DNA of 61,909 bases. Source: an uncultured virus (IMG/VR IMGVR_UViG_2061766007_004349) (taxonomy: Duplodnaviria > Heunggongvirae > Uroviricota > Caudoviricetes). This document shows, one piece after another, positions 1-51,717 of this stretch (position 1 is its first letter; each line of letters opens with the position of its first letter). The notes below the pieces were generated by a model. That model was not told the DNA's origin. It ran no database searches and saw only the letters and a program-made list of their open reading frames with translations. Both the position numbers and the translations under genes were made by a program. The stretch is taken from the IMG/VR virus record IMGVR_UViG_2061766007_004349; one strand, 5' to 3'.

Positions 1-1
1 C

Positions 2-337
2 GCTCACATGAAGGCCCTCGACGTGAATTGCGGGTGCGGCGTCGCACACAACGGAATCATCCGGCTGACCACAGACACCACGAACAGGGAGTTCAGCGAC
101 ACAGCGATTTTCATCACCGATTACCTTTCAACCATCATCCGGCGGCCAGATGACCTGAAAGACCCGGATGTGCTCCGGCTCATCTACCGGCTGGCGGGCT
201 CCAAATTCGCCATCATGGACGCCAGCGGGTACATCGCCACGGTTGGGGAGTTCATCAACGAAAAGGGAATCCTCTACAGCAACAGAACCTACTGTGCGCC
301 TCGGGACTACCTGGGAACCTACGCCCGGCGCGGATAA
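2..337 (+). CDS. Class II glutamine amidotransferase-like protein, C-terminal part (allelic copy of 728-1186)
   Basis: AHNGII and SDT motifs; near-identical to 1006-1186; 5' end outside window. Confidence 0.7.
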   Translation, partial: AHMKALDVNCGCGVAHNGIIRLTTDTTNREFSDTAIFITDYLSTIIRRPDDLKDPDVLRLIYRLAGSKFAIMDASGYIATVGEFINEKGILYSNRTYCAPRDYLGTYARRG

Positions 338-617
338 GCCGGGCGGGGTTTCGCCTGGGCTTTCAAATCAAACCGCCTGACGATGGCCTCCGGCACAGGC
401 CGAAACCCACCCGCATCGGGTGTGGNNNNNNNNNNGGGTGGAAGACATCGAGCAGGTACAGCGGGTCTGGGATGACCACGGCAAACGGCGCTTCGAAATC
501 ATCGCCAAGGGCAAGCGGTACACCATCCGCTGACACCTTCCGCCGCCGGAACACAGACCGACGAAAATACCGCTTGACTTCCGGCGGCGGGAGAGTGNNN
601 NNNNNNNCGAAAACACC

Positions 618-649
618 GCTTGACTTCCGGCGGCGGGAGAGTGATGAAT
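618..649 (+). promoter_or_regulatory. Putative element-specific promoter GCTTGACTT-N12-GAGTGA-N2-AAT
   Basis: TTGACT -35-like hexamer upstream of GATase; same motif and spacing at 3234-3265 (-). Confidence 0.5.
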
Positions 650-727
650 CACCTGCCCCAACGGGGAACGCCGCCCGGCTTTCAAATCAAGAACGGCCAT
701 TGGCCGGAAATACAGGAGGAAAATCAC

Positions 728-1186
728 ATGTGTATCATCTGCGTATCGCCCGCAAAAATCAGACAGCCTTCCATCAGCTCCATCCGAACCATGTTTGAAG
801 CGAATCCCCACGGCGCGGGATACATGTACGCCCGAGACGGCATGGTTCACATCAGCAAGGGCTACATGAACATCGATGATTTCCTGGCCGCCCTGAAGGA
901 TGAACACTTCACCGCAAAAGACCCGGTGGTGTACCACTTCCGCATCAGCACACAGGCCGGGGTGAACCCCCAAATGACGCATCCCTTCCCGCTTTCAAAT
1001 CAACGTGCTCACATGAAGGCCCTCGACGTGAACTGCGGGTGCGGCGTCGCACACAACGGAATCATCCGGCTGACCACTGACCCTACGAACCTGGAGTACA
1101 GTGACACAGCAATTTTCATCACCGATTACCTTTCGGCCATCATCCGGCGGCCAGATGACCTGAAAGACCCGGATGTGCTCCGGCTC
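728..1186 (+). CDS. Class II (Ntn) glutamine amidotransferase-like protein, truncated by gap
   Basis: AGGAGG RBS, then MCII (N-terminal Cys nucleophile), NPHGAG, HFRIST, HPF and AHNG motifs. Confidence 0.8.
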
Positions 1187-1719
1187 NNNNNNNNNNNNNN
1201 NNNNNNNNNNNNNNNNNNNNNNNNNNNNNNNNNNNNNNNNNNNNNNNNNNNNNNNNNNNNNNNNNNNNNNNNNNNNNNNNNNNNNNNNNNNNNNNNNNNN
1301 NNNNNNNNNNNNNNNNNNNNNNNNNNNNNNNNNNNNNNNNNNNNNNNNNNNNNNNNNNNNNNNNNNNNNNNNNNNNNNNNNNNNNNNNNNNNNNNNNNNN
1401 NNNNNNNNNNNNNNNNNNNNNNNNNNNNNNNNNNNNNNNNNNNNNNNNNNNNNNNNNNNNNNNNNNNNNNNNNNNNNNAGACAATAGGCACCGCAGAGAC
1501 ACACGAATTCAGCCGCTTTCCAGTCCGGAAGGTGGCTTTCGTCATTTTCGGCGGGCTTTTAAGTCAAGGCCGTTTCGGGCCGCCGTTCGCGCCGTTTGGC
1601 CCGGTCGGGTTTTCCCTCGACCCTTGCGGCAAAGCCCGCGACAGGGGCAAACGTGCGCCAACACGGGCAACGAAAAAGCGGCCAGCGTATTGGCTGAACC
1701 GCTTTCCGTTCCATGGGGA

Positions 1720-2241
1720 TTACGTCTTCTTCAACAGGTCGACGGCGACCTCCACAGTGTCGCCCTTCTCCCGGAAGCGTACCACAATCTCACCGTCGGC
1801 TGCCTGATACAGCGCCTGGAAGGGGCGCTCCCAGATCTGTGTCAGACCGGGGCATTCCCGGATCGCCTCTGATCTGATCTCGGCGAAATCCACACCGCCC
1901 GCTTTCCACTTCTGGAAAATCCGGATGAGCCTGGGCACATGCTCCGCTTTGATGGTCTTCAAGGCTTCTTCGCCGGCCACGGCTTTGAAATCAGCATCGG
2001 GTGTGTCTTCCTGGAAGAACGCCCAGCATTCGATGGGCAGCGGATTCCGCATGAAGTCAAGCATCGATTCTGCTGAGCCGCAGTCATCGCATAAATAGAT
2101 GCCGTCGGCGTGTCTGCTCAGCGCGTTGGTGGTCAGCGTTGGTTTCATCGTATACCGCCCACAGCGCGGGCAGGGCATATGTTCGCCCGCTTCCTGCCGG
2201 GCTCTCAAATCAAGCAGGGCTTCCTGAATGCTATTACTCAT
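1720..2241 (-). CDS. Phage hypothetical protein with CxxC...CxxC zinc ribbon
   Basis: MSNSIQEALL start after purine-rich RBS; CPRCG...NALSR...LCDDCG. Confidence 0.7.
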   Translation of the reverse strand: MSNSIQEALLDLRARQEAGEHMPCPRCGRYTMKPTLTTNALSRHADGIYLCDDCGSAESMLDFMRNPLPIECWAFFQEDTPDADFKAVAGEEALKTIKAEHVPRLIRIFQKWKAGGVDFAEIRSEAIRECPGLTQIWERPFQALYQAADGEIVVRFREKGDTVEVAVDLLKKT

Positions 2242-3206
2242 TCTCTTCCTCCTCCTCCACCATGACCTCCGGCACATCCGGTCCTTGTTCAGCCACCCGG
2301 CGTTCCCGGCGGATAGCCGTGTACTTTTCTTTGTGAGCCTGCATCTTGGCTCCGTTAGCGAAGGCGCAATAGCCGCGCAGATGGCCCAGCAGGATTTTCC
2401 GTTCAGCTTTGGAATCACCGCCGCTGTNNNNNNNNNNTATGCGCCAGGTACTTTTCGTTCTCCTCGGTAGGTTCCACCTGCTCCGGAGACACCCGCATGG
2501 CCTTCACCGCCGCATCGTAAATCCGGTTCAGCAGATTGGCGTAGGCAGTCCAACGTTCCGGCTGTGTCTCATTGAAGGGGAATGTCATCGTCACCTTGCC
2601 GTCCCGGAAATCAAATCCGGTCAGGCCGTCGGCTCTGGAATCGTCCAGCAGTTCGGTGAAAGCTTCCGGCGTTTCCGGCGTGCTCTCCCGCAGGCGGTCA
2701 ATCAGGATGCCGGGAATGCTCAGGCAGCCGCTCTGGGTCATACTGTTNNNNNNNNNNNNNNNNNNNNNNNNNNNNNNNNNNNNNNNNNNNNGCATGAAGG
2801 TCAGGTTTTTCAGCTGCGCCGGAGTGATGCCCCGCGCCGGAATCGAAATCTCCATGCTCGTGACGGGGTCCCGCGCTTCTGAATCAGCGGGCGCTTCTTC
2901 AGGCGGAATGCTGTCCGTTTCAGGANNNNNNNNNNNNNNNNNCAGGGCAGGCGCTCCAGCGTTTTCCTCTTCCGCAGTCGTTTCCTGATCGGCGTTTTCC
3001 CCTGTGATATAGCTGTTCCGCAGCAGGAAATCCCGCAACGCTCCGAAATCATCTCCGATGATACTGCCGTCCCGGTCAACGGTGTATTCACCAATCTGGT
3101 AGGCGTAAGTAGGTGCCCGCAGATAAACAGCAGGCGTCCCCAGTTCCTCGGCGATGGCTTTGGCCAGCGCTTTGCGGTCGGTTGTGTTGGTTCTAATCGT
3201 CATCAT
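2234..3206 (-). CDS. Phage hypothetical ('virulence-related protein' type), broken by gaps
   Basis: RKALAKAI...YLRAPTYAYQIG N-terminus; NEKY and ERKILL...L.GYCAF C-terminus; GGAGG RBS. Confidence 0.65.
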
Positions 3207-3233
3207 GCCTTCCTCCTTTGATTTTGGTATGAC

Positions 3234-3265
3234 ATTACTCACTCAAAAGGGCATGAAAGTCAAGC
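3234..3265 (-). promoter_or_regulatory. Putative promoter GCTTGACTT-N12-GAGTGA-N2-AAT
   Basis: Matches the 618-649 motif; just upstream of the RBS of the 3206 gene. Confidence 0.5.
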
Positions 3266-3321
3266 AGAAATACGAGTTTCAGGCATTTTTGTTTTCATCC
3301 GGGCACACTTACTCTTCTTCA

Positions 3322-4107
3322 TCAGAACAGGCCCCATTCGGCAAACTTCTCAAAGCCGCCCAGGGACTGAATGTACATTCTGGCCTCTTTCACAATCTCG
3401 CCGAAGGGGACGCCGTCTACGGTATCATCACCGATAGCGCAGCAGAGGGAGACAGGTTCACCTGTGCGCTGGGCCTTAAGGAAAGCGTGGATATTGACGG
3501 ATACGTCCGCTTTGGTCAGGTCTTTGCCATGCAGCCCGCCGCCGGTAACGCTGTCAGCCATGTCGCTGCCCAGCTTCCGGTTCGTCGCGCCGCTGTCCAC
3601 ATCCGGCCCGCCCGTCCAAGCGCCCAGGGGATTGATTTCCGCACCGGGAAACTCAGCAGCCAGGTCGGTGGTAGTGGCGTTGCTCTGGCAGATGATCAGG
3701 CGCTCCCCGTCCAGAATGTATTTACCATCATAGGGATACTTTTCGTAGATGCGCCGGGCGATGGCGGACAGCTGTTTTTGCTCTTTTGTCAGTGGCATAC
3801 CCTTGAAGATACCGTTGTCGCCACAGCGGAAGCCTTCCGCCTGATTGGCGGCGAGACGGGCATCCTGGGCCACTTCGCAGTAGTCCGTGACAATGCCTTC
3901 GCCCGCGATGCGGGTGACGGTATCCTGCACAAAGGTGACCGGGATATGTACGAAAGTCTCCGCAATGATGTGGCACAACCCGTGCCCGAGCAGCACCTCC
4001 ACCGCGATTCGGGGATTGTCATGTACGGAGTAGGCGTAGTCAACCAGCGAGCCGGCGATGCGGTCGCCGATTTTGTCAACATGCGATGGGTTCACTTTTT
4101 CTATCAT
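3322..4107 (-). CDS. metK: Compact phage-type S-adenosylmethionine synthetase
   Basis: EKVNPSHVDKIGDRI, GDNG, DSGATNRKL and GGGLHGKDLTKADVS motifs; about 261 aa. Confidence 0.85.
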   Translation of the reverse strand: MIEKVNPSHVDKIGDRIAGSLVDYAYSVHDNPRIAVEVLLGHGLCHIIAETFVHIPVTFVQDTVTRIAGEGIVTDYCEVAQDARLAANQAEGFRCGDNGIFKGMPLTKEQKQLSAIARRIYEKYPYDGKYILDGERLIICQSNATTTDLAAEFPGAEINPLGAWTGGPDVDSGATNRKLGSDMADSVTGGGLHGKDLTKADVSVNIHAFLKAQRTGEPVSLCCAIGDDTVDGVPFGEIVKEARMYIQSLGGFEKFAEWGLF

Positions 4108-4224
4108 CAGGAAAGCTCCTTTCGACCTCAAGTTGGGTTTATGCCTACCGGCAGAAGAATTTGCAATTGCTCCACACCATTTTTCATGATATAATGCTCG
4201 TACCAATCACGAGGAGGTGTCCGT

Positions 4225-4482
4225 ATGGCAGAGAAGTTCATTCCCTACGAAAAGCTCTCCAAGAAAAAGAAGAGAGAGCTGAACGCGAAACGCAGGAACA
4301 CATGGGGCAGCCTGAATCCCGTCACAAGGAAACCGGCCAGCTCCAGGGCGTACGACAGACGCAAGGCGCGGAAGTGGATTCATGATGAATTCCCTACCGC
4401 GCCTTTTGTATTTGAAAAAGCCCCCGCACCGCGAAGGCTTCATCCTTTTTTACTCCTGCATGATAACATGTCAAGCCCCTGA
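4225..4482 (+). CDS. Small basic phage hypothetical protein
   Basis: GAGGAGG RBS, TATAAT upstream; MAEKFIPYEKLSKK...RRNTWGSLNPVTR. Confidence 0.65.
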   Translation: MAEKFIPYEKLSKKKKRELNAKRRNTWGSLNPVTRKPASSRAYDRRKARKWIHDEFPTAPFVFEKAPAPRRLHPFLLLHDNMSSP

Positions 4483-4516
4483 AAACAAGATGAAATTCAG
4501 CGAAACTTCAATGAAA

Positions 4517-4933
4517 TCAAGCGAAATTCAAGCTTTTTTCAATATTGTTTTTCGCTTCCCTGATGATCATCTGCACACGGCGCACTCCGACGCCGCTTTC
4601 CATAGCGATGACGTCATTCTGCTTCCCTTCGATGTATCGCATCGTCATCATCTGGATTTCCTGCGGATCCGTCAGAAGGCCAATCCAGTACATGGCTGTT
4701 GTCTGCAATTCGGCCAATTCTTCTTTCAGGGAAGACAGATCACGTTCTGCGTCTACGACTGCGGACACTTTTTCACCCATGGCGTCCATGTTCCGGCTAT
4801 GGGTTACACGCTCTGTGTCGAACGGCGCACTGCTGGCGCACAGCGTATCACGATACGTCTGGACGCGTCTTTCCGTTACCGCAATCAGCTTCACCACATA
4901 TTCCAATCTGTCAAAACGTTCTGAAACTGTCAT
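4517..4933 (-). CDS. DUF1492/RinA-ArpU-like transcriptional activator
   Basis: Coiled coil plus C-terminal sigma-r4-like HTH (MRYIEGK...IA...VRRV); position after SNF2. Confidence 0.6.
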   Translation of the reverse strand: MTVSERFDRLEYVVKLIAVTERRVQTYRDTLCASSAPFDTERVTHSRNMDAMGEKVSAVVDAERDLSSLKEELAELQTTAMYWIGLLTDPQEIQMMTMRYIEGKQNDVIAMESGVGVRRVQMIIREAKNNIEKSLNFA

Positions 4934-5148
4934 TCCTCCATCTCCTTCCTCAGCCGTTTAATCAGGTATTCTCCGGGCACTTCCGTCAACTGGGCGTACC
5001 AGCGGGAACGGAAGAACCGTTCGATCTTCAGCGCGTCCTTCGTCGCTTCTCTGTTCCCAGGGTCTTTTCTGATCCGCCGCAGATCCGCCCTGTAGTCCTC
5101 CGCAGCCCGTTCTATGATCGCATTCGCCAGGTCGTGCCAGCAGTCCAT
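4930..5148 (-). CDS. Phage hypothetical protein
   Basis: LANAIIERAAEDYR...ERFFRSRWY...L pattern; stop overlaps next start. Confidence 0.7.
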   Translation of the reverse strand: MDCWHDLANAIIERAAEDYRADLRRIRKDPGNREATKDALKIERFFRSRWYAQLTEVPGEYLIKRLRKEMEE

Positions 5149-5248
5149 TCCGCACACTCCGTTTCCTCCTGCGTTCTTCACGCATGATATTCGCCAGCGC
5201 CGCCCCGGCGGTCGGGTCGCTGTAGCCCTCACGGTTCCTGTAACTCAC
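4958..5248 (-). CDS. Small phage hypothetical (NREGYSDPTA type); 3' part overlaps next gene
   Basis: Recognisable N-terminal motif; long overlap makes the true end uncertain. Confidence 0.4.
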   Translation of the reverse strand: MSYRNREGYSDPTAGAALANIMREERRRKRSVRNGLLARPGECDHRTGCGGLQGGSAADQKRPWEQRSDEGRAEDRTVLPFPLVRPVDGSARRIPD

Positions 5249-5481
5249 GCCGATCCACCGCCTTTGCTCTTCTTCTCAAGGTAGCTGTAGACTTCCATCC
5301 CCAAATCCATGGCCAGCGAATGATTGTTCCACTTCTCTCCTGCCAGGGCGGAGATGTCCTTTGCTGCCTTTTCCCAGAACGCGGCGCTTGCTTCTGTCCC
5401 GGTTGTGGGCGGGTCATGATGCTCTTTCAAGTAAATCCAGATATCCCGGATGATCTGCTTCTCAGTTTCCACTGCTTTCAA
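5245..5481 (-). CDS. Hypothetical protein
   Basis: GGAGG RBS; coupled to neighbouring genes. Confidence 0.55.
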   Translation of the reverse strand: MKAVETEKQIIRDIWIYLKEHHDPPTTGTEASAAFWEKAAKDISALAGEKWNNHSLAMDLGMEVYSYLEKKSKGGGSA

Positions 5482-8016
5482 CCTCCGCCTTCACGGCATC
5501 GATCAGGGCTTCCTGTATCCGGTCCTTCTCCGCTAGCGCTTTCAGCACCCTGGCGTCTACAGTGTCTTTTGTAACGATATGTGTGATGACAACGGTTTCA
5601 GCTTTCTGCCCCTGCCGGAACAGACGGGCGTTCATCTGCTGGTACAGCTCCAGCGACCAGGTGGGTGTAAACCAGCAGATCGTGTTCCCGCCTTCCTGCA
5701 GGTTCAGCCCGTGCCCGGTTGATGCGGGATGCGCAAGGCCGACCTGTATCTGTCCGGCGTTCCACCGTTTCAGGGACGCTTCTGAATCCAGCCGTTCAAA
5801 AGGAACGCCGATCTGCGCCAGGCGCTCCGTTATCCGCTGCAGGTCATGCTTGAACCAGTACCCAACCAGCAGTGGCCTGCCATTCATGCCTTCGATGATG
5901 TCTTCCAAGGCATCCAGCTTTCGGGCGTGGATGCGGATTACGCCTCCATCATCGGAGTATATCGCTCCGCTGGATAGCTGCAGGAGCTTGCCCGTCAGCG
6001 TTGCCGCGTTTGCCGCGGTGATCTCACCCTCCGGAAGGGACAGCACAAGATCCTGCTTCATTTCCTCATACACAGCTTTCTCTCTGGGGGACATCTCCAC
6101 CTCATAGCTGGTGGTGATGAGTTCCGGCATTTTCAGATGCCCGCAGGCCTTCATGCTGATGGTGATGTCTCCGATGCGGCGGTATATCTCCTCCTCAGCG
6201 CCGGGCAGGGGCTTGTAGCTGTACACGATGGGTCCGTTCATCCTATCGGGCGTGAAAAACGCGTTCCGGTACTGCCCGATGAAGCGGCCCAGCCGCTGGC
6301 CCATATCCAGCAGACGGAATTCAGCGAACAAATCCATCAAACCGTTGCTGGAAGGAGTGCCTGTCAGGCCGACCACCCTTTTTACACGGGGACGGACTTT
6401 CATCAACGCCTTGAAGCGCTTCGCCTGCCAGCTTTTGAAGGATGACAACTCGTCGACCACCAGCATGTCGAAGCCGAAGGGNNNNNNNNNNACGCACCTC
6501 CGCCTTCACTGCATCTATCAGGGCTTCCTGTATCCGGTCCTTCTCTGCCAGCGCTTTCAACACTCTGGCGTCCACGGTGTCCTTCGTCACGATGTGGGTG
6601 ATCACCACAGTCTCCGCTTTCTGCCCCTGACGGTACAGGCGCGCGTTCATCTGCTGGTACAGTTCCAGCGACCACGTCGGCGTGAACCAGCANNNNNNNN
6701 NNNNNNNNNNNNNNNNNNNNNNNNNNNNNNNNNNGTTCAGCCCGTGACCGGTTGATGCGGGGTGCACCAGCCCGACTTTTATTTTCCCCTCGTTCCATCG
6801 CTTCATGGACGCTTCTGTGTCCAGCCGCTCGAAGGGAANNNNNNNNNNNNNNNNNNNNNNNNAGCAGGGGTCTTCCATTCATCCCTTCGATAATGTCCTC
6901 CAGGGCGTCCAGTTTCCGGTCATGGATCCGGATCACGCCGCCATCGTCGGCGTATATCGCCCCGCTGGACAGCTGCAGGAGCTTGCCCGTCAGGGTCGCA
7001 GCGTTCGCCGCTGTGATCTCGCCGTCCGGAAGGGACAGCACAAGATCCTGCTTCATTTCCTCATACACAGCTTTCTCTCTGGGGGACATTTCCACTTCAT
7101 AGCTGGTGGTGATGAGTTCCGGCATTTTTAGATGCCCGCAGGCCTTCATGCTGATGGTGATGTCGCTGATGCGCCGGTAGATTTCCTCTTCCGCGCCGGG
7201 CAGGGGCTTGTAGCTGTACACGATGGGGCCGNNNNNNNNNNNNNNNNNNNNNNNNNNNNNNNNNNNNNNNNNNNNNNNNNNNNNNNNNNNNNNNNNNNNN
7301 NNNNNNNNNNAAGGCCGTTGCTGGAAGGAGTGCCTGTCAGGCCGACCACCCTTTTTACGCGGGGACGGACTTTCATCAGCGCCTTGAACCGCTTCGCCTG
7401 CCAGCTTTTGAAGGATGNNNNNNNNNNNNNNNNNNNNNNNNNNNNNNNNNNNNNNNNNNNNNNNNNNNNNNNNNNNNNNNNNNNNNNNNNNNNNNNNNNN
7501 NNNNNNNNNNNNNNNNNNNNNNNNNNNNNNNNNNNNNNNNNNNNNNNNNNNNNNNNNNNNNNNNNNNNNNNNNNNNNNNNNNAACGCGTAGTGGGGCGAT
7601 GATAAGGGGCTTGTGAACCTCAAAGCTGTCAAACAGCAGATCCGCGATGGCAGTCAGGGAGATGACCGTTTTGCCCAGACCCATATCGAGNNNNNNNNNN
7701 TGATGTAGATGTCCGCGTCCTTCCGCAGCGCCGCCTGACGCTCCTGGGCTGTGCCTGTGATGACCGACCATGTCAGGCTTTGAAGGTGATCCCATTTCTG
7801 AATTTCGGCGGGCCAGGTGTCGCGGGCGACGCGGAGCGGGGCGATGATAAGGGGCTTGTGAACCTCAAAGCTGTCGAACATCAGGTGTTCAATCGCCGTT
7901 AGCGTGATAACCGTCTTTCCTCAGCCCAAGCCCATATCCAGCAGCAGGGCCGCTTGTTCATGACTCAGAATGTGCCTGACCGCAAACGTCTGATAGTCAT
8001 GGGGTACGAACTTCAC
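5462..8016 (-). CDS. Phage SNF2-family helicase, present as overlapping fragments of at least two alleles
   Basis: GTG start 8016; DMGLGKT, APLRV, VVDELS, GLTGTP, GHGLNLQ and QMNARL motifs; one allele has an in-frame TGA at 7921-7923. Confidence 0.85.
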
Positions 8017-8282
8017 CGGGCATCACCTCCAATCTCATCCAGCATCCCGGCAATATCCGCCGGATTGTCCAGTACGTATGCTTTGAATCCCAGCCGCCGC
8101 AGGAGACCGTNNNNNNNNNNTTTGCCGAGGGCCTTGACTTCCACAAACGCCAACCGTCCTCGGGGCAGGAGCACCAGTCTGTCCGGCATGCCGTCGAAGG
8201 CTGGGCTCACAAATTTCAGGGCGATGCCGCCGCGCTTTCGCGCCGCTTTAACAAGGGCCTGTTCTACCGTTTTTTCTCTCAC
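8013..8282 (-). CDS. VRR-NUC domain nuclease
   Basis: GMPDRLVL...FVEVKA PD-(D/E)xK motif. Confidence 0.85.
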   Translation of the reverse strand: MREKTVEQALVKAARKRGGIALKFVSPAFDGMPDRLVLLPRGRLAFVEVKALGKXXXXGLLRRLGFKAYVLDNPADIAGMLDEIGGDAR

Positions 8283-8290
8283 AGACACTT

Positions 8291-8560
8291 TGTCATGATT
8301 TGAAAAAGCGCCTTGCAATCTGTATGACATTTGAAAACCTCCCATTTATAAGGGCTCGTGACCTTTTGTCATATTGTCATGCAGTCCTATAGGGGAAAAA
8401 ACAATATGGGAGGAGTAGTCCTGAAATTGAGAGAGATAGATATAGTCAATTTTGGTCTTTATAAGGATTTTTGAAAAAATGACAAAAGTCCAAAGGCCAG
8501 TATTTTCAAGGGTTGCCGTCCTCATATCCTGTCATACTCCTCCATGACAAATACATGACA
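8291..8560. repeat. TGTCAT/ATGACA iteron-like cluster, putative replication origin
   Basis: Eight copies (8291, 8324, 8367, 8375, 8479, 8530, 8544, 8555) around an AT-rich core, downstream of DUF3987. Confidence 0.55.
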
Positions 8561-8561
8561 A

Positions 8562-10083
8562 TTACTGCAAAAAGGTCTGATTCCAAAGCGGGTTCACCAG
8601 ATACTGTGGCAACGGCGGTCGTCCGGAATAGCGCTTTTCACAGGGCAACTGGCTGATATAGCCGTAGTCCTCCAGGAAATCCAGCACGGGCTGAATCTCG
8701 CTGACGGTCTTAAAGCTCTGGCAGTAGCGCATGGCTGTTCTCCGGTCAAACTCCTTCAGCCCTTTCTCCGCAATTGCCTTCAGGATTCGGCTGGCTTGTA
8801 CGTACATGGGCTTTTCCGGAAGCACGTCATAGGCGGCGATGGCGTTGCTGAGATAGTACCNNNNNNNNNNNNNNNNNNNNNNNNNNNNNNNNNNNNNNNN
8901 NNNNNNNNNNNNNNNNNNGTTATCGGCAATCTCATCCAGAAAGCCATGCCCCAGATAGACATTGGCCCGGCAGAACAATCCGGCGATACGCAGCGTATTG
9001 CCGATCAGCTTGCCCGCCCAATCCGCGATATCCACATATTCCCTGGTTAGCTTGGGTTCAAACTCGGAAGAAAAAGCGGATAACAGCCTTCTGGCTTCCG
9101 GACTGACTTTGATCGTGCAGGGCGTTCCGGAGTATTCGTCTTCCAGCAAATTGACAATCTTCCGGTCGTACTGGCCGGATACAGTTTCGGACACGGGCGT
9201 ACTGTCATACAGCCGGGTACCGACCCTGGAATCCGGGATACAGTAGAGGAAGCGGGCCGTCAGACCGCGCCCACGGAAGGTCTTGTTTCCAAGCACAGCC
9301 GAAACAACACCGGGCTGCGCCATGAGGAGCACCGTAAGGGCCGGATTCATGACGCTCTCGCTTTCCCTGCCGATACGGTCTACGCGGATCGTGTCTCCTG
9401 AATACCCTTTCAGCATGACGTCGATGTTCACGTTCTTCGTGTAGATGCCCGCAAGGGTGTCGAAAATACCGCCCTCGCTGGAGACCAGCGCAGCCCTGCC
9501 TTTGTTGGCGGACAGGACAGAAACCAGCTTTTCAGTCGTGATGTCATCCACATACAGCTGTAGCGGTTTTTCCTCTTCGAAATCAGCGACCTCTCTGGCA
9601 ATCCGCTCCAGTTCTTCCTTCTCAACCTTGCCCTTGGCGAACTGTTCCTCCGCGGCTTTCTGCCTGCGTTCAAGCGCCCGCTTCAGCATTTTGCTGTTCT
9701 CCACGTTGGCGGCGTTCCTCAGATTAAACTGCTGCTCAAAGGTATTGAGGGGACGCAGCATCATGTTCAGAACAGCGGACTTGCGCTCGGATGGCAGCGC
9801 GGAAACCAGCGCATAGGTATTCAGCGGCTCCAGCCAGTCCGCTTTGCCCTGGATACGGTATTTGCCCTGCAGGCAAACAGACAGAATGGAAAGAGCGACG
9901 GTCGCGGCCATATCCACCGGCGTCTGCGTGCTTTCAGCAACGGCGGACACATAATCCGCGATGTCTTTCGGCAGCGCGTCCAGGGGAAACGGCATGATGG
10001 TGTGTCTGTAGAATGGAATCGGCTCTTCCCAGCCAGACGAGATTTCTTCAAAATCCGCCTGGGCCTCCGCCGCTTTTTCAGCC
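8562..10083 (-). CDS. DUF3987/YfjI-family replication helicase-like domain (5' end lost at gap)
   Basis: FPLDALP, PSERKS, DDITTEKL, SSEGG, GDTIRVDR and RGLTARFL motifs; C-terminal wHTH-like region. Confidence 0.8.
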
Positions 10084-10093
10084 NNNNNNNNNN

Positions 10094-10609
10094 ACACAGG
10101 ATGTCCCGACTGATGCCCTGGACGCAGTTTTCCACCAGCTTGCCGCCCCAGGTTTCGATCCGTTCCCATTTCTTCGTACTGCCGACGCCCATATAGGTTG
10201 CCGCCGGTGATCCAAAATGGTTTTCCCCGATCCGGGGCTTCACATAGGAAAGCTGGCGGCCCGAGGGCAAGGTAATGAACAGCATGCCGGAGCGGACAGA
10301 GAACAAAAGCCCGTGGGTCCTGGTAGTGGTTTTCTCCCGAATTGCTGTCATGACTGCGCCATCCACATCCCACCAAAGCCTGACGATGTTGGGATTGGAT
10401 GCGCGCCACGCCTGCACCAGCGGGGCAAGCTCCTCCTCCTGGAGGCCCATCTCCAATGCGCCCATGGCCTTTAAGGCGCCAGTTGAGCCGCTATAGCCCA
10501 GGGCCAGCTCCGCGATCTTACCTTTTTGCCGCAAGTGCCCGTTCACACCGTGCTTCTCCACAGGCACCTTGAACATTTGGCTAGCGGAGGCGCAGTAGAT
10601 ATCACCGCC
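10094..10609 (-). CDS. Family A DNA polymerase fragment (second allele)
   Basis: GDIYCASAS, RQKGKIAELALGY, LPSGR and KLVENCVQ motifs. Confidence 0.8.
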
Positions 10610-10619
10610 NNNNNNNNNN

Positions 10620-11399
10620 CTCAAAGAACTGGCACGCCTTGATAAAAGAAGCCTTTTCATCTTCATTTCCGAACAGGTGGATGCGGACAAGATCGAAGAG
10701 GTTCAGCAGCCTGCCGCCCGCTGGGTCTGTGGCGTGATGGCTGTAGATGAATTTGTCCTCATAGATGATCACGCCCGCCGAGCCCTCGCCGGGGATGTAA
10801 TCGTACCGGCCTTCCACCATGGAAGGCGCGTATATATGGGAGAGGAACTTCGCGATGCCATCCTGGGGCGAATACGTCCGGCATACCGCGCCGATGATGC
10901 CCTGTTTCACTGTGGGGTTTTCCAGCATTTTGCGTTCCCGGTTCATGTCCGCCTTTTCACCGGGGGCAGTGGGCAGACTTGAGTAATCCCTCCAGTTGGG
11001 ATGCGCGGCAAGATACGCGTCCGGGTCGAGCCAGTCACCGTCATAGCGCCTGTGGATATACTCCCCATCACAGGAGCAGCTGGGCCAGAACATCAGCTGG
11101 TTAATTTTGAAAGAGCAGATATCGATCATCGCCATGCCGATCTCATCAGCCAGGTATCTGACAATGGCGTTGTACTCTTCCGGTGTCACATCCCTGGCAA
11201 GCGGGATCAGCAGCCTGGCCCTAGGCGCTTCGCGCCGGTGCGAGTGCGTGGTATACAGGATGGTAAAATACCTGTGGGACGCTTCGTAATCGTCAAAGAA
11301 GCCGGGCGCCAGTTTGTCGAAGTCCATAGTAACCATGGAGCGGGATACGACTTCGTCCCTCTTGCGCCGGGTGCCCTTGAGCGTTCCGGCTACTGTCAA
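10620..11399 (-). CDS. Primase-like N-terminal region (VapE-associated type), 5' apparently truncated
   Basis: TMDFD, YTTHSH...PRARLLIPL, QLMFWPS and YSHHATDP motifs. Confidence 0.7.
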
Positions 11400-11423
11400 A
11401 TACAGGTAAGGTATTCATCCATG

Positions 11424-13132
11424 TCAGTCCTTTCTGTAGAATTCACATTCATAGCCATCTGAACGAAGCAGCAAGCCTTCCGCCCAGGGCGGCGTCCTGC
11501 CCATTTGTTCACATACAGCATCGAGGGACATACGGGGATCGGCTTCTATGATCAGCTCATCGTGCACATGAGCCACGATGCGGCAGCAGCGGAGCGTTTT
11601 CATGGCGTAGCACAGGATGTCCCGGCTGATGCCCTGGACGATGTTTTCCACAAACTTCGGCCCATAAGACTCGATCCGTTCCCATTTCTTCATGCCGCCC
11701 ACACCCATATAGGTCGCTGCCGGAGAGCCAAATTGGTTCTCTCCGATACGGGGCTTCACATAGGAAAGCTGCCTGCCAGATGGCAAGGTGATGAACAGCA
11801 TCCCGGAACGGACGGAAAAAGTGAGGCCATGAGTCCTGGCAGTGGTTTTCTCCCGTATCGCCGTCATAACCGCGTCGTCCACATNNNNNNNNNNCAGCCA
11901 AGCGATGACGCGGGCTTCGATGGCGGAGAAGTCAGAGACGATCAGCTTCATGCCCGGATCGGGAACAAAGGCGGTACGGATCAGTTCCGAAAGCACATCC
12001 GGCACGGAGCGGTACAGCATATGGACCGCGTCATAGTTGCCTTCACGCACGAGGCCGCGGGCAGCATCGAGATCAGGCATATGATTCTGCGCGAGATTCT
12101 GCATCTGCACAATTTTGCTGGAAAACCGCCCTGTTCTATTGGCCCCGTAGAACTGGAACATTCCGCGTACCATGCCATCCGCGCACACCGCGTTTTTCAT
12201 AGCCAGGTACTTTTTCACGCTGCTTTTGGCCAGCTGCTGGCGCAGCAGAAGCGCATCCCGCAGCAGGGGCGGAGCGTCCTTCAGCAGCTCAACCACCTGT
12301 TTTTTCCCCAGGCTGTCGGTCTCCAAGCCGTTGTTGGCCAGCCATTGCTTCATCTGCTGCACGCTGTTGGGGTTCTCCAGGTGGGTCAGCTTCTGCATAA
12401 TGTCTGTCAGTTCTGCGCGGGAGCGGGCGTCCATGGCGATGGCGTTTTCCACGAGCGCCATATCCACCCTGATTCCCCGGTCATTGATTTCCTGATCGAT
12501 GTGATATTGATCCCATACTTCTTCAGGAACGGGAAAGCCGGACAATTTCCGCTGGATTTCCATTTCCACCTCGACGTCGCGCATGTTATAGGATTTGAAG
12601 GTTTCCCATTTGTCCGGCGCGTCAGAGGGCAGGTTACGTGTGCGGCCGCCGTTGGCCCGGGTNNNNNNNNNNNNNNNNNNNNNNNNNNNNNNNNGGTCAG
12701 TTTCTGTTTTTCAAGGCCCAGCACCGCGCCGGCCTCTGCCAGTGACAGCGGCATGCCCATGTAGGCGGCCCAGATCATGGAGCAGCGCCAGCTTTCCGGA
12801 TTCAGAAAACGGGCGCATTCAGCTGATGGCGAATGGCGGTCATGGAAAGGATCAAGGGAAATGCCCTGATCTGAAAGGAACCGGGACAGACAGACCCTCT
12901 CGAAATTCGCGTTATAGCTCCACTTGACCACAGTTTCATCCGTCAGCGCATCCAGAATTACCTGGGGAATCGTCTCGCCGGACGCGAGATCAACGACCTG
13001 TACAGGCCCGCCGTCCACGCTGTAGCCAAAGAGCAGAATTTGGAAATCCGGAGATTCACAGTACCGATAAACGCCTGCTTTGTTCAGATCTGCACTGGAA
13101 AAGGTTTCCAAATCGATTGAGACTGTTTTCAC
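11424..13132 (-). CDS. Phage family A DNA polymerase (gapped)
   Basis: Exo SIDLETFS/YNANFER; GANRTGR, QNL, SDFSAIEAR and HVHDE motifs. Confidence 0.9.
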
Positions 13133-13212
13133 TTCATCACCCCCTGGGAGGAGGGGACAGCGGCTTGCGCCGNNNNNNNNNNNNNNNNNNNNNNNNNNNN
13201 NNNNNNNNNNNN

Positions 13213-13777
13213 GGAAATCCTCGTCACCGTCATCCGCAAAATCAGACTCGGCGCTGGCACGGCTGCCCAGCGGCTCACCATCACGGATCTTCTGCAGGTT
13301 ATTGAGCCCGCAGGCGATGCCGCGATTGCCCGAAGAATTGAACGCGTAGAAAGTGATGCTGGCCCTGCCATACACTCCGGAATACACCTCGGAGCGGGTC
13401 AGGATCGGATTGCGATCCGCGTCCACGATGCCCGGAGCGGAGCTGGCGTTGGCGTTGACGAAATAGCAGCCCGCATACGCCGGATCGTCCGGGCGCTCGG
13501 TGTCGCCGTCGCGGAGAGGCGTCTTGATGGCGCTGAGCGCGGGAACGGACTTGCCGTTGCCCTTCAGTTTGGCCTCGCCCTCGTTATAGGCGGCTTCGAT
13601 GGCGGCCTTGATCTTGGCAAGGGTCTTGGTGTCGGACTTGGGAATGATCAGGCTGACGCTGTACTTGGGCGCGCCTCCATTGATCGACTTGGGCTCCCAG
13701 ACGTTGGCGTAGCTCCAACGGGTATCCGGGCCGGTGATTACTTTCATGGGATTGGCGGGCTTCATAGTCTTATTCAT
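13213..13777 (-). CDS. DUF2815 ssDNA-binding protein
   Basis: RWSYANVWEP, KYSVSLII, PLRDGD, YSGVY and GLNNLQK motifs; acidic tail. Confidence 0.9.
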
Positions 13778-15049
13778 TGTCAGAATCCTCCATAAAATCA
13801 TTTTTTGCTGTGTTCATGGCCGGGCGGCCATCTATGTCCGGCACGAGCGTGGGTTTGCCCTGCGGCTTCTCGATGTAAGCCGTGAGCAGTTCATCGAAGC
13901 GGGCCTTGCCGAGCATCTTCTGCATGGACGTGATGCCAAGGATTTTCCGCTCATACGGGTCAAAGCCAGCCTTGGCCACGGCTTCCGCGGCAGCGGTCTC
14001 GTTGGTGTACCTGCGGTTGGACCGGCCCTCGACCAGTTTCCAGCCGTGCCATTCTTTCCCGCTGATCGCCTGTTGACGGGCGTACTCCTTAATATCGGAA
14101 GCCCAAGAGACCAGATCGTCTACACGGGAGAGAATGTCTTCAACATCCTCGTCCGTCAGGAGCGGCGGCAGCTTGAAATCATACCGGGCCAGCGCCAGGT
14201 TGGCTTCTGCCCGTGCCCGGCACTCGTTCTTCGCCTTGCAGAATCCGCACCATTCGCCGCACAGGAAGNNNNNNNNNNGAGGATTTTCCGCTCATACGGG
14301 TCAAAGCCAGCCTTGGCCACGGCTTCCGCNNNNNNNNNNCTTCCGTCACCAGCGAAGGCCAGATCTGCCGTGGGCTTCAGGACCTCGTCGGCCCACTGGT
14401 ACAGGTCATCCTTGGAGTGGGTGAAGGTGCTGATGTTTTGCCTGCGGGGCTGGTAGATCGTCATGGCTACCGTGTCGATGTCGTAGATCCCGTCGAACAG
14501 TTCCAGAGCGCCGAGCGCGTAGCATTTCATCTGCGGGTTGTCCTCCGCCGATACCAGGACGCCGAGGCCGTGCTTGTAGTCGATGACGTGCATGGTGCCG
14601 TCTGCGATCAGGATCGCGTCGGATGTTCCGAAGCCCTGTTCCACCCAGCGNNNNNNNNNNATGGTTCCGTCAGCGATCAGGATTGCGTCGGATGTTCCGA
14701 AGCCCTGTTCAACCCAGCGGGAGAAATCCACCCGCTGCTCGATCAGGACGACCGGATCCGCGCAGGTTTCCTTGGCAGCCTCTACCAGTTCGAGGATGAA
14801 GGCAGCATACCCAGAGGCGCAGTCATCCATTTCCTGATTGAACCAGCTGAGGTTCTCGGTGGGATTCTCGGCTTCCATGCCAAGCGCCTTCCGAAGCTTG
14901 TACTCACACAGTGCGTGGGCGTCAGTGCCTTCGGCGGCGTAGTCGCTGCCCTTGTCCGCGTAGGACTCACACAGCCGTGCCGATGGCGGGCAGTGGAGCC
15001 AGCGGTCTGAGGATGAAGCGGAAAGAAGCGCATGTCCATTAGGTGGCAT
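13770..15049 (-). CDS. DUF2800 Cas4-like exonuclease (gapped, allelic duplicates)
   Basis: HALLSASSS.RW..CPPS, EGT.AH, FGTSD, IDYKHG, QPR and W.CGFC motifs. Confidence 0.9.
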
Positions 15050-15346
15050 TGCCCAGCACCTCCGCATCCCTCAGAAGGGCTTCATAGTTCTTGGGATCGA
15101 CCTGCGAAAGCTTGGCCGCGCCATGCTTCTCCAGCAGTACACGCACGGCGGCGGTGTGCCCGGCGCGGGACTTGTCCGCCAGCACGGCACGCACTTGTTC
15201 CAGCGTGACAGCCGGTTTCGCATCGGCGGGCGNNNNNNNNNNNNNNNNNNNNNNNNNNNNNCAAGCCAGTTGGCTGCATCAGTAATCGCGGTAGCAGCAG
15301 TGCGGAGCTCTTCGATGGTTTGAGCCATTTCGCCTATTTTGCTCAT
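15039..15346 (-). CDS. Conserved phage hypothetical upstream of DUF2800
   Basis: MSKIGEM...; TLEQVRAVLADKSRAGHT...LLEKHGA.KLS. Confidence 0.7.
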
Positions 15347-15491
15347 GGTGTTTGCCTCCTTCTTGTGTTTGGCGTTGGTTGGCAAGAGCAGCAAGCTTTC
15401 GCGCCAGGCGGGCGGATACCAGACTGATTGCGCCAAGCACCTGAATCTCTTCGGCTACAACGCTACTGTCTCTACGGTTGCAGTGTTCCAT
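15279..15491 (-). CDS. Small phage hypothetical, first gene of replication operon
   Basis: GGAGGTG RBS; VLGAISLVSARLARKL. Confidence 0.6.
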   Translation of the reverse strand: MEHCNRRDSSVVAEEIQVLGAISLVSARLARKLAALANQRQTQEGGKHHEQNRRNGSNHRRAPHCCYRDY

Positions 15492-16054
15492 GTTGTTTCA
15501 CCTCCGTTTCTGCAAGGCCGGTGTCGTTGCCTTACACTTTCCACTGGNNNNNNNNNNATTCCTATGGCATTTCCGGGGCTGTATATCCCTGCCCCCACTC
15601 CCGAAATCGGTCATGTTTTTGCTCGTTTCCACTCACAAAAACCTGCCCGTTTTCCTGCCGAGCAAAAGGAGCGTTCCCTCACCGAAACGCTCCTTTTCCC
15701 CGTCAGCCGTGGGTGCAGGTATAACACACTATNNNNNNNNNNNNNNNNNNNNNNNNNNNNNNNNNNNNNNNNNNNNNNNNNNNNNNNNNNNNNNNNNNNN
15801 NNNNNNNNNNNNNNNNNNNNNNNNNNNNNNNNNNNGCCAAAGGAGGAGTCACCCTCCTTTGGAATCCACCCCAAAAGCAAAACAGAATGTGCCTGAAAGA
15901 AAATCACATTCCATTTTGCCATTTGGTACGAAGCAATCCTTTCCGAATTGTATTCAGATTGTCAGTTGTCTTAGAAGACCAAATGTGCTATAATTTTATA
16001 TCGGAAGATATGATCATGATGTGGTAAAAGTAAGGGATACAAGGAGGTGCAAAT

Positions 16055-29589: not shown

Positions 29590-32508
29590 TTATACCTCAT
29601 CCAGGCTAAACCTGTGCCGATCTATTCCGTTGCACCGGATAAACAACCCATATTTCCCTACACAAGGCTCTAAAGACGTATGATCACGTGGACATCTCCT
29701 ACCATCTGGGTTTTTAAAGTAAAAATATGACATCACCATGTCTTCCGTCACAAACTCCGTATGGTTACACCTTGGATAGCCGGTACACCCAAGAAAGAAC
29801 TTCCCGGTCTTTCCCTTTTTCAAACGGAGGGGGCTTTGGCATTCAGGGCATTTCAGCTCGCCACTTGCATAAGCGCTGAAGGTATCATACCCACCTTCCG
29901 CATTTTTTGCAGATTCGACGGTCGTTTGATCAACCGTTTTATTCATTTCGAGGAAACCATAAAGCGACTGAGCAAAATGACGGCCTTCATAACGAATGAT
30001 TGGTCTAAATCGAGTTGGAATGGTCACCCCTTCTGAGATAAAGTCCGCGCCGGAATGTGGCATACCAAACCAAACAATACGTTTATCGATCAGCGTGATG
30101 GGATTGGCAAAGTATTTGTTTTCTATAGCCAAGGCGCGAAGTTCAAGAGGAAGGCAGGCTTTTGCCTCAGCACGGACGATGACTTTTTTGCCCTTCTGCT
30201 TGAGTAGATTCAGTATTCTCACTAAATCCTGAAGGAAAGAAGTCTTTACAACCGTTGTACCAGGGATATCAATGCGGACTTCGCTCTTTGTCTGGGCAAC
30301 TTCTTCAAGAAAACGCTTATCAAATACCTGCCCCATCCCCATCTGCATGATCGGAGTGTTACAATCAGATACTATCACAGGGCCGCTGGATGTGGCATGG
30401 AACGCCGTTTCCTCAATCATCTGGCGGAACATCAGACTCTGTGACAAATTCTTTGTCCGCATATAATCTGCGTTGACGACGGTAAGCATCTTGCCACGTG
30501 CTCTTGTCAGCGCTACATTATAAAGCCGGTTTGCATAGTTGTTGGTTGTTGATGTCAACAGCATTCCAGGGTACGGCATACGATAGCAATCGACAGCGTC
30601 ATAAATGATGACGTCCCTTTCCGAACCCTGGAACTGATGCACTGTGGCGCAAACGATTTTATGATACTCCGGATTGCTTTCTGCCACGTCCCTTGAAATT
30701 GCGTGCAGTAGTCGGGATTGAGCACTGTACGGGGAAATGACCCCTACATCGCTTGTCTGTGCCGCTTTGATAGCTATACCCATGGAGACCAGTGCTGAAA
30801 GCACATTGATGCGTGATTGATCTCCGGTTTTCAGGCAAACAGACATCATTCCGCTGAGATCGTACATCCCTATGGCCTTGCCCTGCATCGGAGCACGGAC
30901 AGTTATTCTTTGTCTGTCTTCTTTGATACCTGGTGCTGTTTTTAACAGGCCACGATACATGTTCTTACTCGAGAAGGCTGCAATGTCCGGATGCATCCGA
31001 TACTGTGTGTCCAGCATACAGAGCCATTGATGCGCGTATCCGGCCTGGACAGCGTCAGCGATGCCACAGAATTGGAAAACGTCTGCATTCAGTGCGCTGC
31101 TGTCACTACCTTGTACGATGGGCGGCAATTGCGCAAAATCACCCATACAAATGAAATGTTGCCCAGCAAGACCGGCAGAGAACACAATCTGCGGGATATA
31201 GGCCATGCTGGCTTCATCGAAGATAACAGTATCATACTTCTCTTCGTACAGTGTACTGTCCGCAATTGCCTTAGATACAGTAGTAGCGATAAAACGAGCC
31301 TCTGTAACAGCTTTCCGTTCTTCTGATTGTAACTGCTTCCGAATCTGTGTCAGGCGAGTACCTGCTTCCACAAAACGAGAAGAAGCATGCGGCAATTGTT
31401 TTCTCTCCTCGATAAGCTTGGCTCTTTCCTGAACAAGTTCTGGATGATTGGCAAGTGCAAGATTGTATGATGTCAGATATTCATGGCACAGGAGCTCTTT
31501 ATCTTTTGGGTAACCATATCGCACCATGATTCCTGGTGCCTTTTCCTTTGCCTTTTTAAAGACGCGAGTAATGGCCCCATCTACGGATACGTTGCTATAG
31601 GAAAGCATCAGTACGCGGTGCCCCTTTGCCATATGCTGAAGAGCAATCTTTGCAAGTGTTTCTGTTTTGCCGGTACCGGGAGGCCCCCAGATAAATGAGA
31701 TCGGCTGTGAAAGGGACAGCCGCATAGCGTTTTCCTGTCCGGTCAGAATATCCTTATTGAACTGTACAAGACGCCTGCCATCAAGAATCAGCGATCTCGC
31801 AATCGGTGAATCTGCTGCCCGGAGTGACTTCAATCGCTCAATCAGGAAATGGAGCAGTTTCCACGGCTCCGCAGTAAACTCAATCATCGGTACTTTTTCA
31901 CCGAGATTTTTGGTTGTTGCGATAATCAGCGTGAATTCCTCACAGTTTATGATCGTGGCAGCGATCTCTGTCTCGTTCTGCCAGAGAGAAATCTGGGTAT
32001 TATCGGGAATATTGAGTTCAGAATCGGATTCAAAGGCATAGATATAAATCCCATTTTTGTACTCGACACGTTCACCGTCCACGATCTTCTGCTTTTTGCC
32101 GCCGCTCTGCCGGAGGTACACAATTTCAGATATAAGTAGGCGTTCCTGGTCATCAAAAAACTCATCCAGCGAGTTGTAGCGCGGTACGGTTACTCTTTTC
32201 TCTGGATTTCCTTTGGCTTGCTTGATTTGAGCCTGACGCTCGAAAATCTTTAGACGCTGATCAAACTCTTTTTTTGCCTTTTCAGCGGCTGTCTGTGCTT
32301 CATATGCATGCGCTTCCTCTGTAGCATGTTTCGCTGCATCAGCATCCAGAAGTTGGAGAAAGGTGGTAAAACAAACCGGCACAACAAAGCTCTTTGTTTC
32401 AGCAAGTGAATCAAACTGCACAGTGATATGATTGTCCTGATCCTGTGCGACGATCACGCCTTCACCAAACTTTGTTTTATGGTAGACTCTCTTGCCAATA
32501 TAATTCAC
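29590..32508 (-). CDS. SF1 (DNA2/Upf1-like) helicase with degenerate PLD-like domain and topoisomerase-type C4 zinc ribbons
   Basis: GPPGTGKT, FDEAS, GDFAQLPP, QYRMHP, TVHQFQGSE and NVALTRA motifs; CPEC...FLGCTGYPRC; CPRD...RC. Confidence 0.85.
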   Translation of the reverse strand: MNYIGKRVYHKTKFGEGVIVAQDQDNHITVQFDSLAETKSFVVPVCFTTFLQLLDADAAKHATEEAHAYEAQTAAEKAKKEFDQRLKIFERQAQIKQAKGNPEKRVTVPRYNSLDEFFDDQERLLISEIVYLRQSGGKKQKIVDGERVEYKNGIYIYAFESDSELNIPDNTQISLWQNETEIAATIINCEEFTLIIATTKNLGEKVPMIEFTAEPWKLLHFLIERLKSLRAADSPIARSLILDGRRLVQFNKDILTGQENAMRLSLSQPISFIWGPPGTGKTETLAKIALQHMAKGHRVLMLSYSNVSVDGAITRVFKKAKEKAPGIMVRYGYPKDKELLCHEYLTSYNLALANHPELVQERAKLIEERKQLPHASSRFVEAGTRLTQIRKQLQSEERKAVTEARFIATTVSKAIADSTLYEEKYDTVIFDEASMAYIPQIVFSAGLAGQHFICMGDFAQLPPIVQGSDSSALNADVFQFCGIADAVQAGYAHQWLCMLDTQYRMHPDIAAFSSKNMYRGLLKTAPGIKEDRQRITVRAPMQGKAIGMYDLSGMMSVCLKTGDQSRINVLSALVSMGIAIKAAQTSDVGVISPYSAQSRLLHAISRDVAESNPEYHKIVCATVHQFQGSERDVIIYDAVDCYRMPYPGMLLTSTTNNYANRLYNVALTRARGKMLTVVNADYMRTKNLSQSLMFRQMIEETAFHATSSGPVIVSDCNTPIMQMGMGQVFDKRFLEEVAQTKSEVRIDIPGTTVVKTSFLQDLVRILNLLKQKGKKVIVRAEAKACLPLELRALAIENKYFANPITLIDKRIVWFGMPHSGADFISEGVTIPTRFRPIIRYEGRHFAQSLYGFLEMNKTVDQTTVESAKNAEGGYDTFSAYASGELKCPECQSPLRLKKGKTGKFFLGCTGYPRCNHTEFVTEDMVMSYFYFKNPDGRRCPRDHTSLEPCVGKYGLFIRCNGIDRHRFSLDEV

Positions 32509-32607
32509 ATGGTTTCACCTTTCTTGAAAGCTATGAGGATAGGGCCGAGAAACGTGTATCTTTGCAACACGATGGGTCGGATTATAAATCTACACGATAG
32601 CAGTGGA

Positions 32608-34320: not shown

Positions 34321-34345
34321 ACCTCCGTAATGCCTTTATTCTGTA

Positions 34346-37717: not shown

Positions 37718-37789
37718 TGGCGGTTTTCCCCCTAAATCATTCTCGCTACGGTATCGATCTATTGCCTGTTCCTTTGTGCATGACTACAA

Positions 37790-40561: not shown

Positions 40562-40577
40562 TTTCTTCCACTCGCTT

Positions 40578-51481: not shown

Positions 51482-51717
51482 ACCGAGCCCTCCTTGCACG
51501 AGTCTGAATATATCATAACACAGCTTCTATCGTTTGACAAGACCAAAAGAACAAAAATTTTATACTTTATATCTCTTCGTGTCAGATTATTAAATTTTTA
51601 CGGTGATACATACGTTCGCAATAGGCTGTTGAAAGGACAAAATTTTTGTGCTAACATTTCGCAGGAAGGCACAGCCTCATTAGGAAATCTGACACTGTTC
51701 TGGAGGAGGGATGTTGG

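Follow-up and report, generated by a model that had tools for sequence, protein, structure and literature searches.

To our knowledge, almost all examples of programmed bypassing in bacteria are T4 gene 60 or homologues of it, together with a candidate in phage Hau3. According to the accessible text of one study, the T4 gene 60 insert blocks nicking by MobA and the endonuclease was later lost (10.1101/2022.08.31.505936); in that of another, a slide driven by RNA pairing behind the ribosome, and dependent on ribosome spacing, is proposed for bypass (10.1101/2024.12.09.627546). The accessible part of a 2016 review records no natural in-frame stop hop as known at that date (PMC5009743).

Here we describe a short insert in the Walker A motif of prophage SNF2 helicases, identified in a 61,909-nt stretch of DNA (the window) from an uncultured Caudoviricetes virus (IMG/VR IMGVR_UViG_2061766007_004349). 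Comparison of alleles makes a ribosomal hop over the insert highly likely, and this short stop-hop has probably spread with a homing-endonuclease cassette that would couple the hop to immunity against an HNH enzyme. On the best reading of the sequence data, the cassette would work like T4 mobA/gene 60 yet be a separate element, its HNH gene lacking in the window. So far as the accessible sources describe gene 60 and MobA, the likeness extends to take-off from a Gly codon that borders a stop, renewed pairing further downstream, an RNA structure on the 5′ side that is proposed to drive the ribosome forward, an accompanying HNH gene, placement of the insert in a conserved motif and later loss of the endonuclease. 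Unlike T4 gene 60, the host gene encodes an SNF2 helicase rather than a topoisomerase, the gap is 4 to 15 nt rather than 50 and contains no stem-loop, the helix forms with the start region of the gene itself or as a local hairpin, landing is often mismatched, and there are three take-off positions. Unlike MobA, the SNF2-linked HNH is intergenic, lying between VRR-NUC and SNF2, has N-terminal CxxC motifs and leaves the ORF unsplit; at the SNF2 loci there is no element inserted in, and splitting, a topoisomerase II large-subunit gene.

Other described systems share part of this arrangement. The +6 class corresponds to synthetic E. coli stop-hops in which nine nucleotides give one amino acid, as the accessible text describes them, but those are constructs, whereas the SNF2 insert is natural, conserved and provided with a dedicated helix (Atkins et al. 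2016, PMC5009743). The 10-nt bypass in the terminase of Streptomyces phage Hau3 is likewise short and phage-borne, is stimulated by 5′ elements and has been proposed to serve regulation; unlike the SNF2 case it is triggered by a hungry UUA codon and known from few loci, and the accessible text mentions neither an endonuclease nor helicases (PMC10732093). Magnusiomyces mitochondrial byps are, in the accessible text, also mobile inserts that differ in length and that bypassing renders harmless, but they measure 27 to 55 nt, place an unused sense codon in the A site, occur in many genes and are read by organelle ribosomes (10.1101/2022.08.31.505936).

In the window, positions 7938 to 7912 of the minus strand read GAT ATG GGC TTG GGC TGA GGA AAG ACG (DMGLG-TGA-GKT), and all helicase features given here lie on that strand. 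The frame starts with VKFVPHDYQ at 8016 (GTG AAG TTC GTA ...) and runs for 31 codons before the stop and a Gly codon. This ORF1 (7924..8016; dN/dS 0.088 across insert alleles) ends on the proposed take-off codon GGC (Gly31, 7924..7926), which is followed by the TGA that would occupy the A site at take-off (7921..7923, also present in an independent contig) and by the proposed landing codon GGA (7918..7920), the roles of both Gly codons being suggested by the pooled alleles. ORF2 (7702..7917) extends from the Lys-Thr of Walker A and matches SNF2-rel_dom and phrog_62 DNA helicase; after the landing Gly, 72 codons are open up to an N gap. Upstream, an ORF in the VRR-NUC position (8013..8345, minus strand) matches phrog_93 endonuclease (E 3e-18) and gave zero matches in a Pfam search; its TGA overlaps the helicase start (GTGA). 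A Shine-Dalgarno-like GGAGGTGA (8023..8030), which at HNH-bearing loci is usually the tail of the HNH gene, precedes a GCC (8019..8021) that forms the 5′ strand of a short helix with the take-off codon. Codons 2 to 4, AAGTTCGTA (8005..8013), form the 5′ strand of the main long-range helix, and its 3′ strand, TATGGGCTT (7928..7936), lies immediately 5′ of take-off. Neither an HNH gene between the nuclease ORF and the helicase nor any match in an HNH profile search of the window was found.

A plain DMGLGKT copy from a related prophage (7667..7687, minus strand; GAT ATG GGT CTG GGC AAA ACG) lacks the helix-type codons. The initial annotation had treated it as the other allele of the gene; the copy is indeed present at 7687-7667, but within this gapped mosaic scaffold its sequence is distinct, and it is not provably a same-locus allele. 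The window is a mosaic of related prophage pieces with 64 N runs, and therefore the C-terminal SNF2 piece (5462..6466, minus strand) can be assigned to neither copy. Across positions 1-16000, many genes appear as tandem partial copies between N runs, as in a scaffold of several related prophage variants. Sequencing runs containing the stretch are mostly gut metagenomes by record. Assembly error is ruled out by run X3 of another study, in which a contig covers 7787-8040 gap-free with one differing letter; the comparison used assembled contigs of four runs, and those of X2 and X1 extend to the site, where their overhangs are short. Two RNA runs matched only a small share of the sequence words of the stretch, and the one compared, library X19, gave contigs of relatives only, in which one joint has 147 letters where 149 are expected and might stem from a 4-nt-class allele. 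Chance occurrence is ruled out by the recurrence of the exact motif at 51 IMG/VR and 54 GTDB loci, isolate genomes included. The observation of DMGLG-TGA-GKT in the window is therefore real.

Recurrence was followed through both datasets. The exact GGN-TGA-GGN motif at the 51 IMG/VR loci was accompanied in every case by an intact N-terminus and by 412 to 467 open codons downstream, and the 54 GTDB loci were mostly Bacillota by record title, with one Actinomycetes bin; a few GTDB bins of other phyla hold Bacillota-like alleles and may be mis-binned. When any codon was allowed at +6, 100 IMG/VR loci were recovered (51 TGA, 47 TAA and 2 sense), and both sense-codon cases sit in non-SNF2 genes. 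The position was thus a stop at 98 of 98 SNF2 loci and a sense codon at none. Looser search patterns revealed further gap lengths. The pooled set comprised 614 records, 531 of them with a helicase-profile match; 10 could not be parsed, and 405 distinct loci were obtained. A Walker A insert of 4 to 15 nt was carried by 219 of the 405 distinct phage SNF2 loci and 186 were plain, a ratio that reflects retrieval enriched for insert alleles and not natural frequency. Gaps of 6 nt were commonest (129 loci), followed by 4 nt (29), 7 nt (23), 5 nt (18), 8 nt (7), 9 nt (6) and 10 nt (5), with single loci at 12 and 15 nt, and 82 of the 219 inserts changed the frame. The codon after take-off was a stop in 216 of 219 (TGA 137, TAA 54, TAG 25) and a sense codon in 3. 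Take-off lay at the fifth motif codon in 200 loci, at the first Gly in 16 and at Leu in 3; the fifth codon was Gly in all 200 but L440. ORF2 spanned at least 380 codons in 200 of the 205 insert loci with enough sequence and in 166 of 170 plain loci.

Several alleles depart from the common form. L440, beside an HNH gene, has a 15-nt insert (about 2560-2590; DMG-PR-stop-P-GLGKT) with an ambiguous take-off that a simple hop misfits. L441, L466 and L500 carry frame-changing inserts with sense CTA, TGG or CCA after take-off and are possibly hungry-codon versions. Inserts of 6, 7 and 9 nt with an upstream helix also occur in a different SNF2 subfamily (L428, L429 and L435; YH/YL-DMGLG-stop...GKT[YF]). 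Two prophage helicases in one complete genome (CP130740.1; L227 and L253) both contain the TGA insert, and in one clade (L215, L236 and L267) a PemK/MazF-like gene lies directly 3′ of the helicase. Some inserts resemble small duplications, such as TTAGG present twice in the +5 class, which suggests repeated origin. A long intron or IS after DMGLG-stop was found at 0 of 55 loci with a pattern blind to GAC-starting and TRAG-non-G cases. A separate sample of 1203 GTDB genomes gave 135 matches, of which the best 89 were taken and 76 parsed: 9 inserts (3 of them seeds, and a count that the plain-allele query may bias low), 32 canonical motifs and 35 altered motifs. The altered Walker A sequences in these 35 of 76 (within L525-L613; DCGLG, EMGLGKS, DMGMG) are perhaps traces of past escape from HNH.

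Both halves of the helicase are under purifying selection. Among insert alleles, 48 disjoint close pairs gave dN/dS of 0.088 upstream and 0.071 downstream of the insert, and 14 pairs of plain alleles gave 0.10 and 0.078. Silent divergence upstream versus downstream was lowered in insert alleles (0.26 versus 0.40) and equal in plain alleles (0.47 versus 0.47), and shared cassette ancestry could have inflated the 5′ conservation. On a FastTree phylogeny of 228 downstream ORFs, with the plain set taken from among the matches listed, the insert/plain state changed at least 27 times and the gap class at least 35 times. The loci thus present a non-coding, frame-independent gap between two selected ORF halves, as seen in bypassing, and the A-site codon that in bypassing is either a stop or slowly decoded is here nearly always a stop. 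A take-off/A-site stem-loop within the gap and a 3′ barrier were not found at these loci; the gap is too short for the former. Excess nucleotide conservation in the 45 nt after landing was likewise not found, nor was conserved downstream structure or a SECIS-like signal.

For Gly take-off (215 of 219), the landing triplet was GGN in 184 loci, GAY in 27 and AGC in 4, and for Leu take-off CTT landed on CTT in 2 and on CCC in 1; we infer that each Gly landing triplet still makes at least two pairs with the GCC anticodon. Take-off and landing codons were identical in only 54 of 219 loci and differ in the window (GGC/GGA), contrary to the matched Gly codons that the initial annotation had invoked by analogy with T4 gene 60. 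Its central proposal of a Gly-to-Gly hop over the stop is well backed by the stops at +6 and by the landing series, and the two comparisons it had outlined came out in the same direction: GGN-TGA-GGN cases were numerous, and selection downstream was not relaxed. The readthrough it had offered as an alternative is contradicted by the uniform +6 stops and by the inserts that change frame. Programmed control of the helicase level, which it also put forward, is a conjecture; the upstream RNA helix, the series of gap lengths and the HNH gene escaped it. More generally, the insert series, the frame changes and the purifying selection on both halves fit a hop and make readthrough, selenocysteine and decay unlikely.

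Close to the start and within DMG, insert alleles have silent positions in common (GGC in 96% versus 39%). Codons 2 to 4 pair with UAUGGGCUU, and the GCC ahead of the start with the take-off codon, so that RNA structure lies 5′ of, and includes, the take-off site, as in described bypass. Duplex energy was -12.9 kcal/mol in insert alleles (n=97) versus -7.4 kcal/mol in plain alleles (n=46); of the control windows, two upstream gave no difference and one downstream a difference of 0.9. In 98 aligned sequences, from which the helix structure had itself been derived, 93% of helix cells were paired, with G-U pairs common, and 23 double changes were counted (0 of 500 shuffles); two further covariation measures did not exceed the shuffles (97/500 and 335/500). 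The helix in its fixed register occurred in 134 of 145 insert and 2 of 44 plain alleles (L135 and L142), and it separated independent tree pairs by 10.3:0.0 of 15 (median p 0.002), as did an ensemble measure (7.8:0.1 of 18, p 0.008). A loose score allowing any upstream partner did not separate independent pairs (median p 0.18-0.29) and favoured the insert allele in 4 of the 8 nearest pairs, and the window's own fold was no more stable than shuffles (z -0.93).

The strongest control of the helix is internal, namely that its register tracks the take-off codon. Alleles with take-off at the second Gly used register 2 in 113 of 123 cases and register 1 in none, and those with take-off at the first Gly used register 1, six nucleotides upstream, in 9 of 13 and register 2 in none; the registers were found in 4 and 6 of 111 plain alleles. 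Other Gly codons are matched by changes in the partner strand (L077, L416 and L430), and a separate clade (L005, L056, L099, L335, L346 and L421) holds the same 3′ strand in a local hairpin. An enrichment of N-terminal MKF(I/V/M) is accounted for by the RNA helix and shifts with register.

One HNH_3 family with N-terminal CxxC motifs sits between the VRR-NUC gene and the helicase, and the tail of the HNH gene usually encodes the helicase Shine-Dalgarno sequence and the GCC helix strand. HNH lay directly upstream of 25 of 147 insert and 0 of 61 plain loci (p 1e-4; same-type loci only, 24 of 136 versus 0 of 36). An alignment scan with the HNH found 555 relatives, and of the best 80, 79 precede SNF2. 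Sixty-six distinct HNH-linked helicases were parsed, comprising 49 with an insert, 16 with an altered motif (DCGLG, EMGLGKS and others) and 1 with canonical DMGLGKT, or 36, 16 and 1 without the 13 loci already in the insert sample. The canonical motif accordingly occurred in 1 of 66 HNH-linked helicases versus 32 of 73 HNH-less loci of the genome sample (p 5e-10; without the 13 loci, 2e-8); altered motifs also occurred in 34 of these 73. As in a homing cassette, the endonuclease lies beside its presumed target with the carrier's own site altered (65 of 66 by insert or altered motif), and a co-conversion tract appears to end near it: in insert-plain pairs that are close downstream (mean 0.89), identity falls to 0.69 in the preceding 78 nt in 7 of 7 disjoint pairs, a drop seen in 0 of 44 insert-insert and 3 of 21 plain-plain controls. 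The insert is thus predicted to mark the right-hand end of a mobile HNH cassette, in line with the excision footprint suggested in the initial annotation as to a mobile element, but it is conserved and no decaying scar. A structure search with the HNH gave only weak zinc-finger matches.

Two named phages illustrate the association. Paenibacillus phage Pd_22F (MZ092003), whose host strain is named in its record, combines HNH with a 5-nt insert; GenBank lists its helicase as truncated, without the N-terminus, and a literature search found no paper describing this phage. In Corynebacterium phage StAB, HNH is present, the insert is absent and the plain motif is altered to GLGMGKT. Selfish elements of another kind are known at the same Walker A motif, namely SNF2 inteins at GK|T, which act by protein splicing and not recoding, and the DMGLGKT motif is a hotspot for selfish elements. 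An intein at the insert site was sought in this helicase subfamily and rejected (0 of 46 DMGLGKC loci); intein-like inserts were found only in other SNF2 groups (ADDMGLGK), where phage helicases L370-L415 carry them, several hundred residues long, at DMGLGK|T.

We propose that a ribosome, probably re-initiating from the overlapping upstream gene, would translate 31 codons and pause with Gly-tRNA on GGY and the stop in the A site. The start region, by then outside the ribosome, would re-pair with the codons immediately upstream of the P site and also with the take-off codon, so that the anticodon would be dislodged and the ribosome driven forward by a few nucleotides. The tRNA would then re-pair with a triplet close by that allows at least two base pairs (GGN, GAY or AGC), and decoding would restart at Lys to give DMGLGKT. 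SF2 helicases require the lysine of Walker A, and the hop product alone is therefore expected to function. HNH would nick the canonical Walker A DNA of relatives and copy itself along with the 5′ end of the helicase gene. The carrier would be shielded by the insert or, failing that, by changed Walker A codons, and HNH would often be lost afterwards, as in the window. We more tentatively entertain, with rather less than even confidence, a portable minimal bypass device, in which the HNH tail would supply the ribosome-binding site and one strand of a start-closing helix, and mRNA re-pairing alone would launch hops of 4 to 12 nt from the codon ending the helix, without need of a signal in the nascent peptide or of structure in the gap. 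Since the helix could not form while a following ribosome occupied the start region, the hop would also cap helicase output through ribosome traffic; such a device would have arisen repeatedly, given the different take-off codons and helix partners, and would be the most widespread natural bacterial bypass known.

That the bypass is real but kept mainly to regulate the helicase level, for example through the supply of release factor or the passage of ribosomes across the start region, with HNH as a passenger, is improbable, although partly compatible with the hop-and-immunity cassette. It would agree with the 122 of 147 insert loci from which HNH is absent and which still keep insert and helix, with a helix that covers the start region, and with upstream stops overlapping the start in 100 of 145 insert versus 13 of 44 plain loci; however, gap length and stop type vary freely, and the HNH-linked, insert-free genes, 16 altered to 1 canonical, point to target immunity. 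Recoding class by class, with readthrough at +6 and +9, a +1 frameshift at +4 and +7 and a -1 frameshift at +5, so that the P-loop gains one or more residues, appears quite unlikely. The prfB frameshift motif is CUU UGA C, which the +4 GGU UGA C (GGY TGAY) resembles, and a +1 shift would read TGAY as Asp; most of the +4 class is TGAY, but TAGC and TGGC variants also occur, and a prfB-like +1 shift may still operate in this class. The TTAGG-TTAGG overlap of the +5 class would permit a -1 slip, yet one shared helix would have to serve five different mechanisms, inserted residues would differ between classes, and the three sense codons in the A site all change frame, with no in-frame sense insert among the 98 loci at +6.

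Removal of the insert from RNA, by processing or polymerase skipping, or from DNA before expression, is very unlikely: the flanking GG repeats and adjacent helix would suit it, but an in-frame stop would be needless and is almost universal, the common G-U pairs argue against a DNA structure, and, weakly, a short RNA-library contig of a relative covers 7907-7943 gap-free, with no 6-nt skip joint in that run. It is more doubtful still that the gene is split into a 31-residue peptide and a separately initiated downstream protein, as annotation pipelines assume and as the truncated GenBank entry for Pd_22F would have it. TRA-GGN does resemble a Shine-Dalgarno sequence, but no start codon is conserved after KT (GTN, GCN, ATH or ACN), Lys-Thr is kept with silent variation even when the search used the upstream side only, and the P-loop would be cut. 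Scarcely any probability attaches to selenocysteine, a changed genetic code, a pseudogene or an assembly artefact, despite TGA being the commonest stop and the window a gapped mosaic; dN/dS is below 0.1, upstream genes end at TGA, and isolate genomes as well as the independent contig carry the insert. Selenoproteins and readthrough genes have a single stop type, a kept frame and sense-codon homologues, none of which holds here, and selenocysteine and readthrough were rejected on the three stop types, the frame-changing gaps and the missing in-frame sense inserts.

The hop with its HNH cassette is apparently a second endonuclease-plus-bypass cassette, independent of gene 60. No description of such an SNF2 hop was found in a literature search in which subscription papers and the supplements of recoding surveys, which could list the family, were thinly covered. 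More than 200 distinct alleles varying in gap length, stop, take-off codon and helix partner provide a natural mutational series for asking whether mRNA re-pairing behind the ribosome drives forward sliding, and the prophage helicases that annotation calls truncated or pseudogenes probably include functional ones (6 of the 73 genome-sample loci that were not seeds). Elsewhere in the window, five large ORFs on the minus strand (29590-44063), comprising a DrmD-like SNF2 helicase, DUF1156-like, DUF499-like, an unknown 570-aa ORF and an SF1 helicase, look like an anti-phage defence operon, with all matches below curated cut-offs. At 50633-52956, a LexA-like HTH regulator is divergent from a DNA polymerase IV-like gene.
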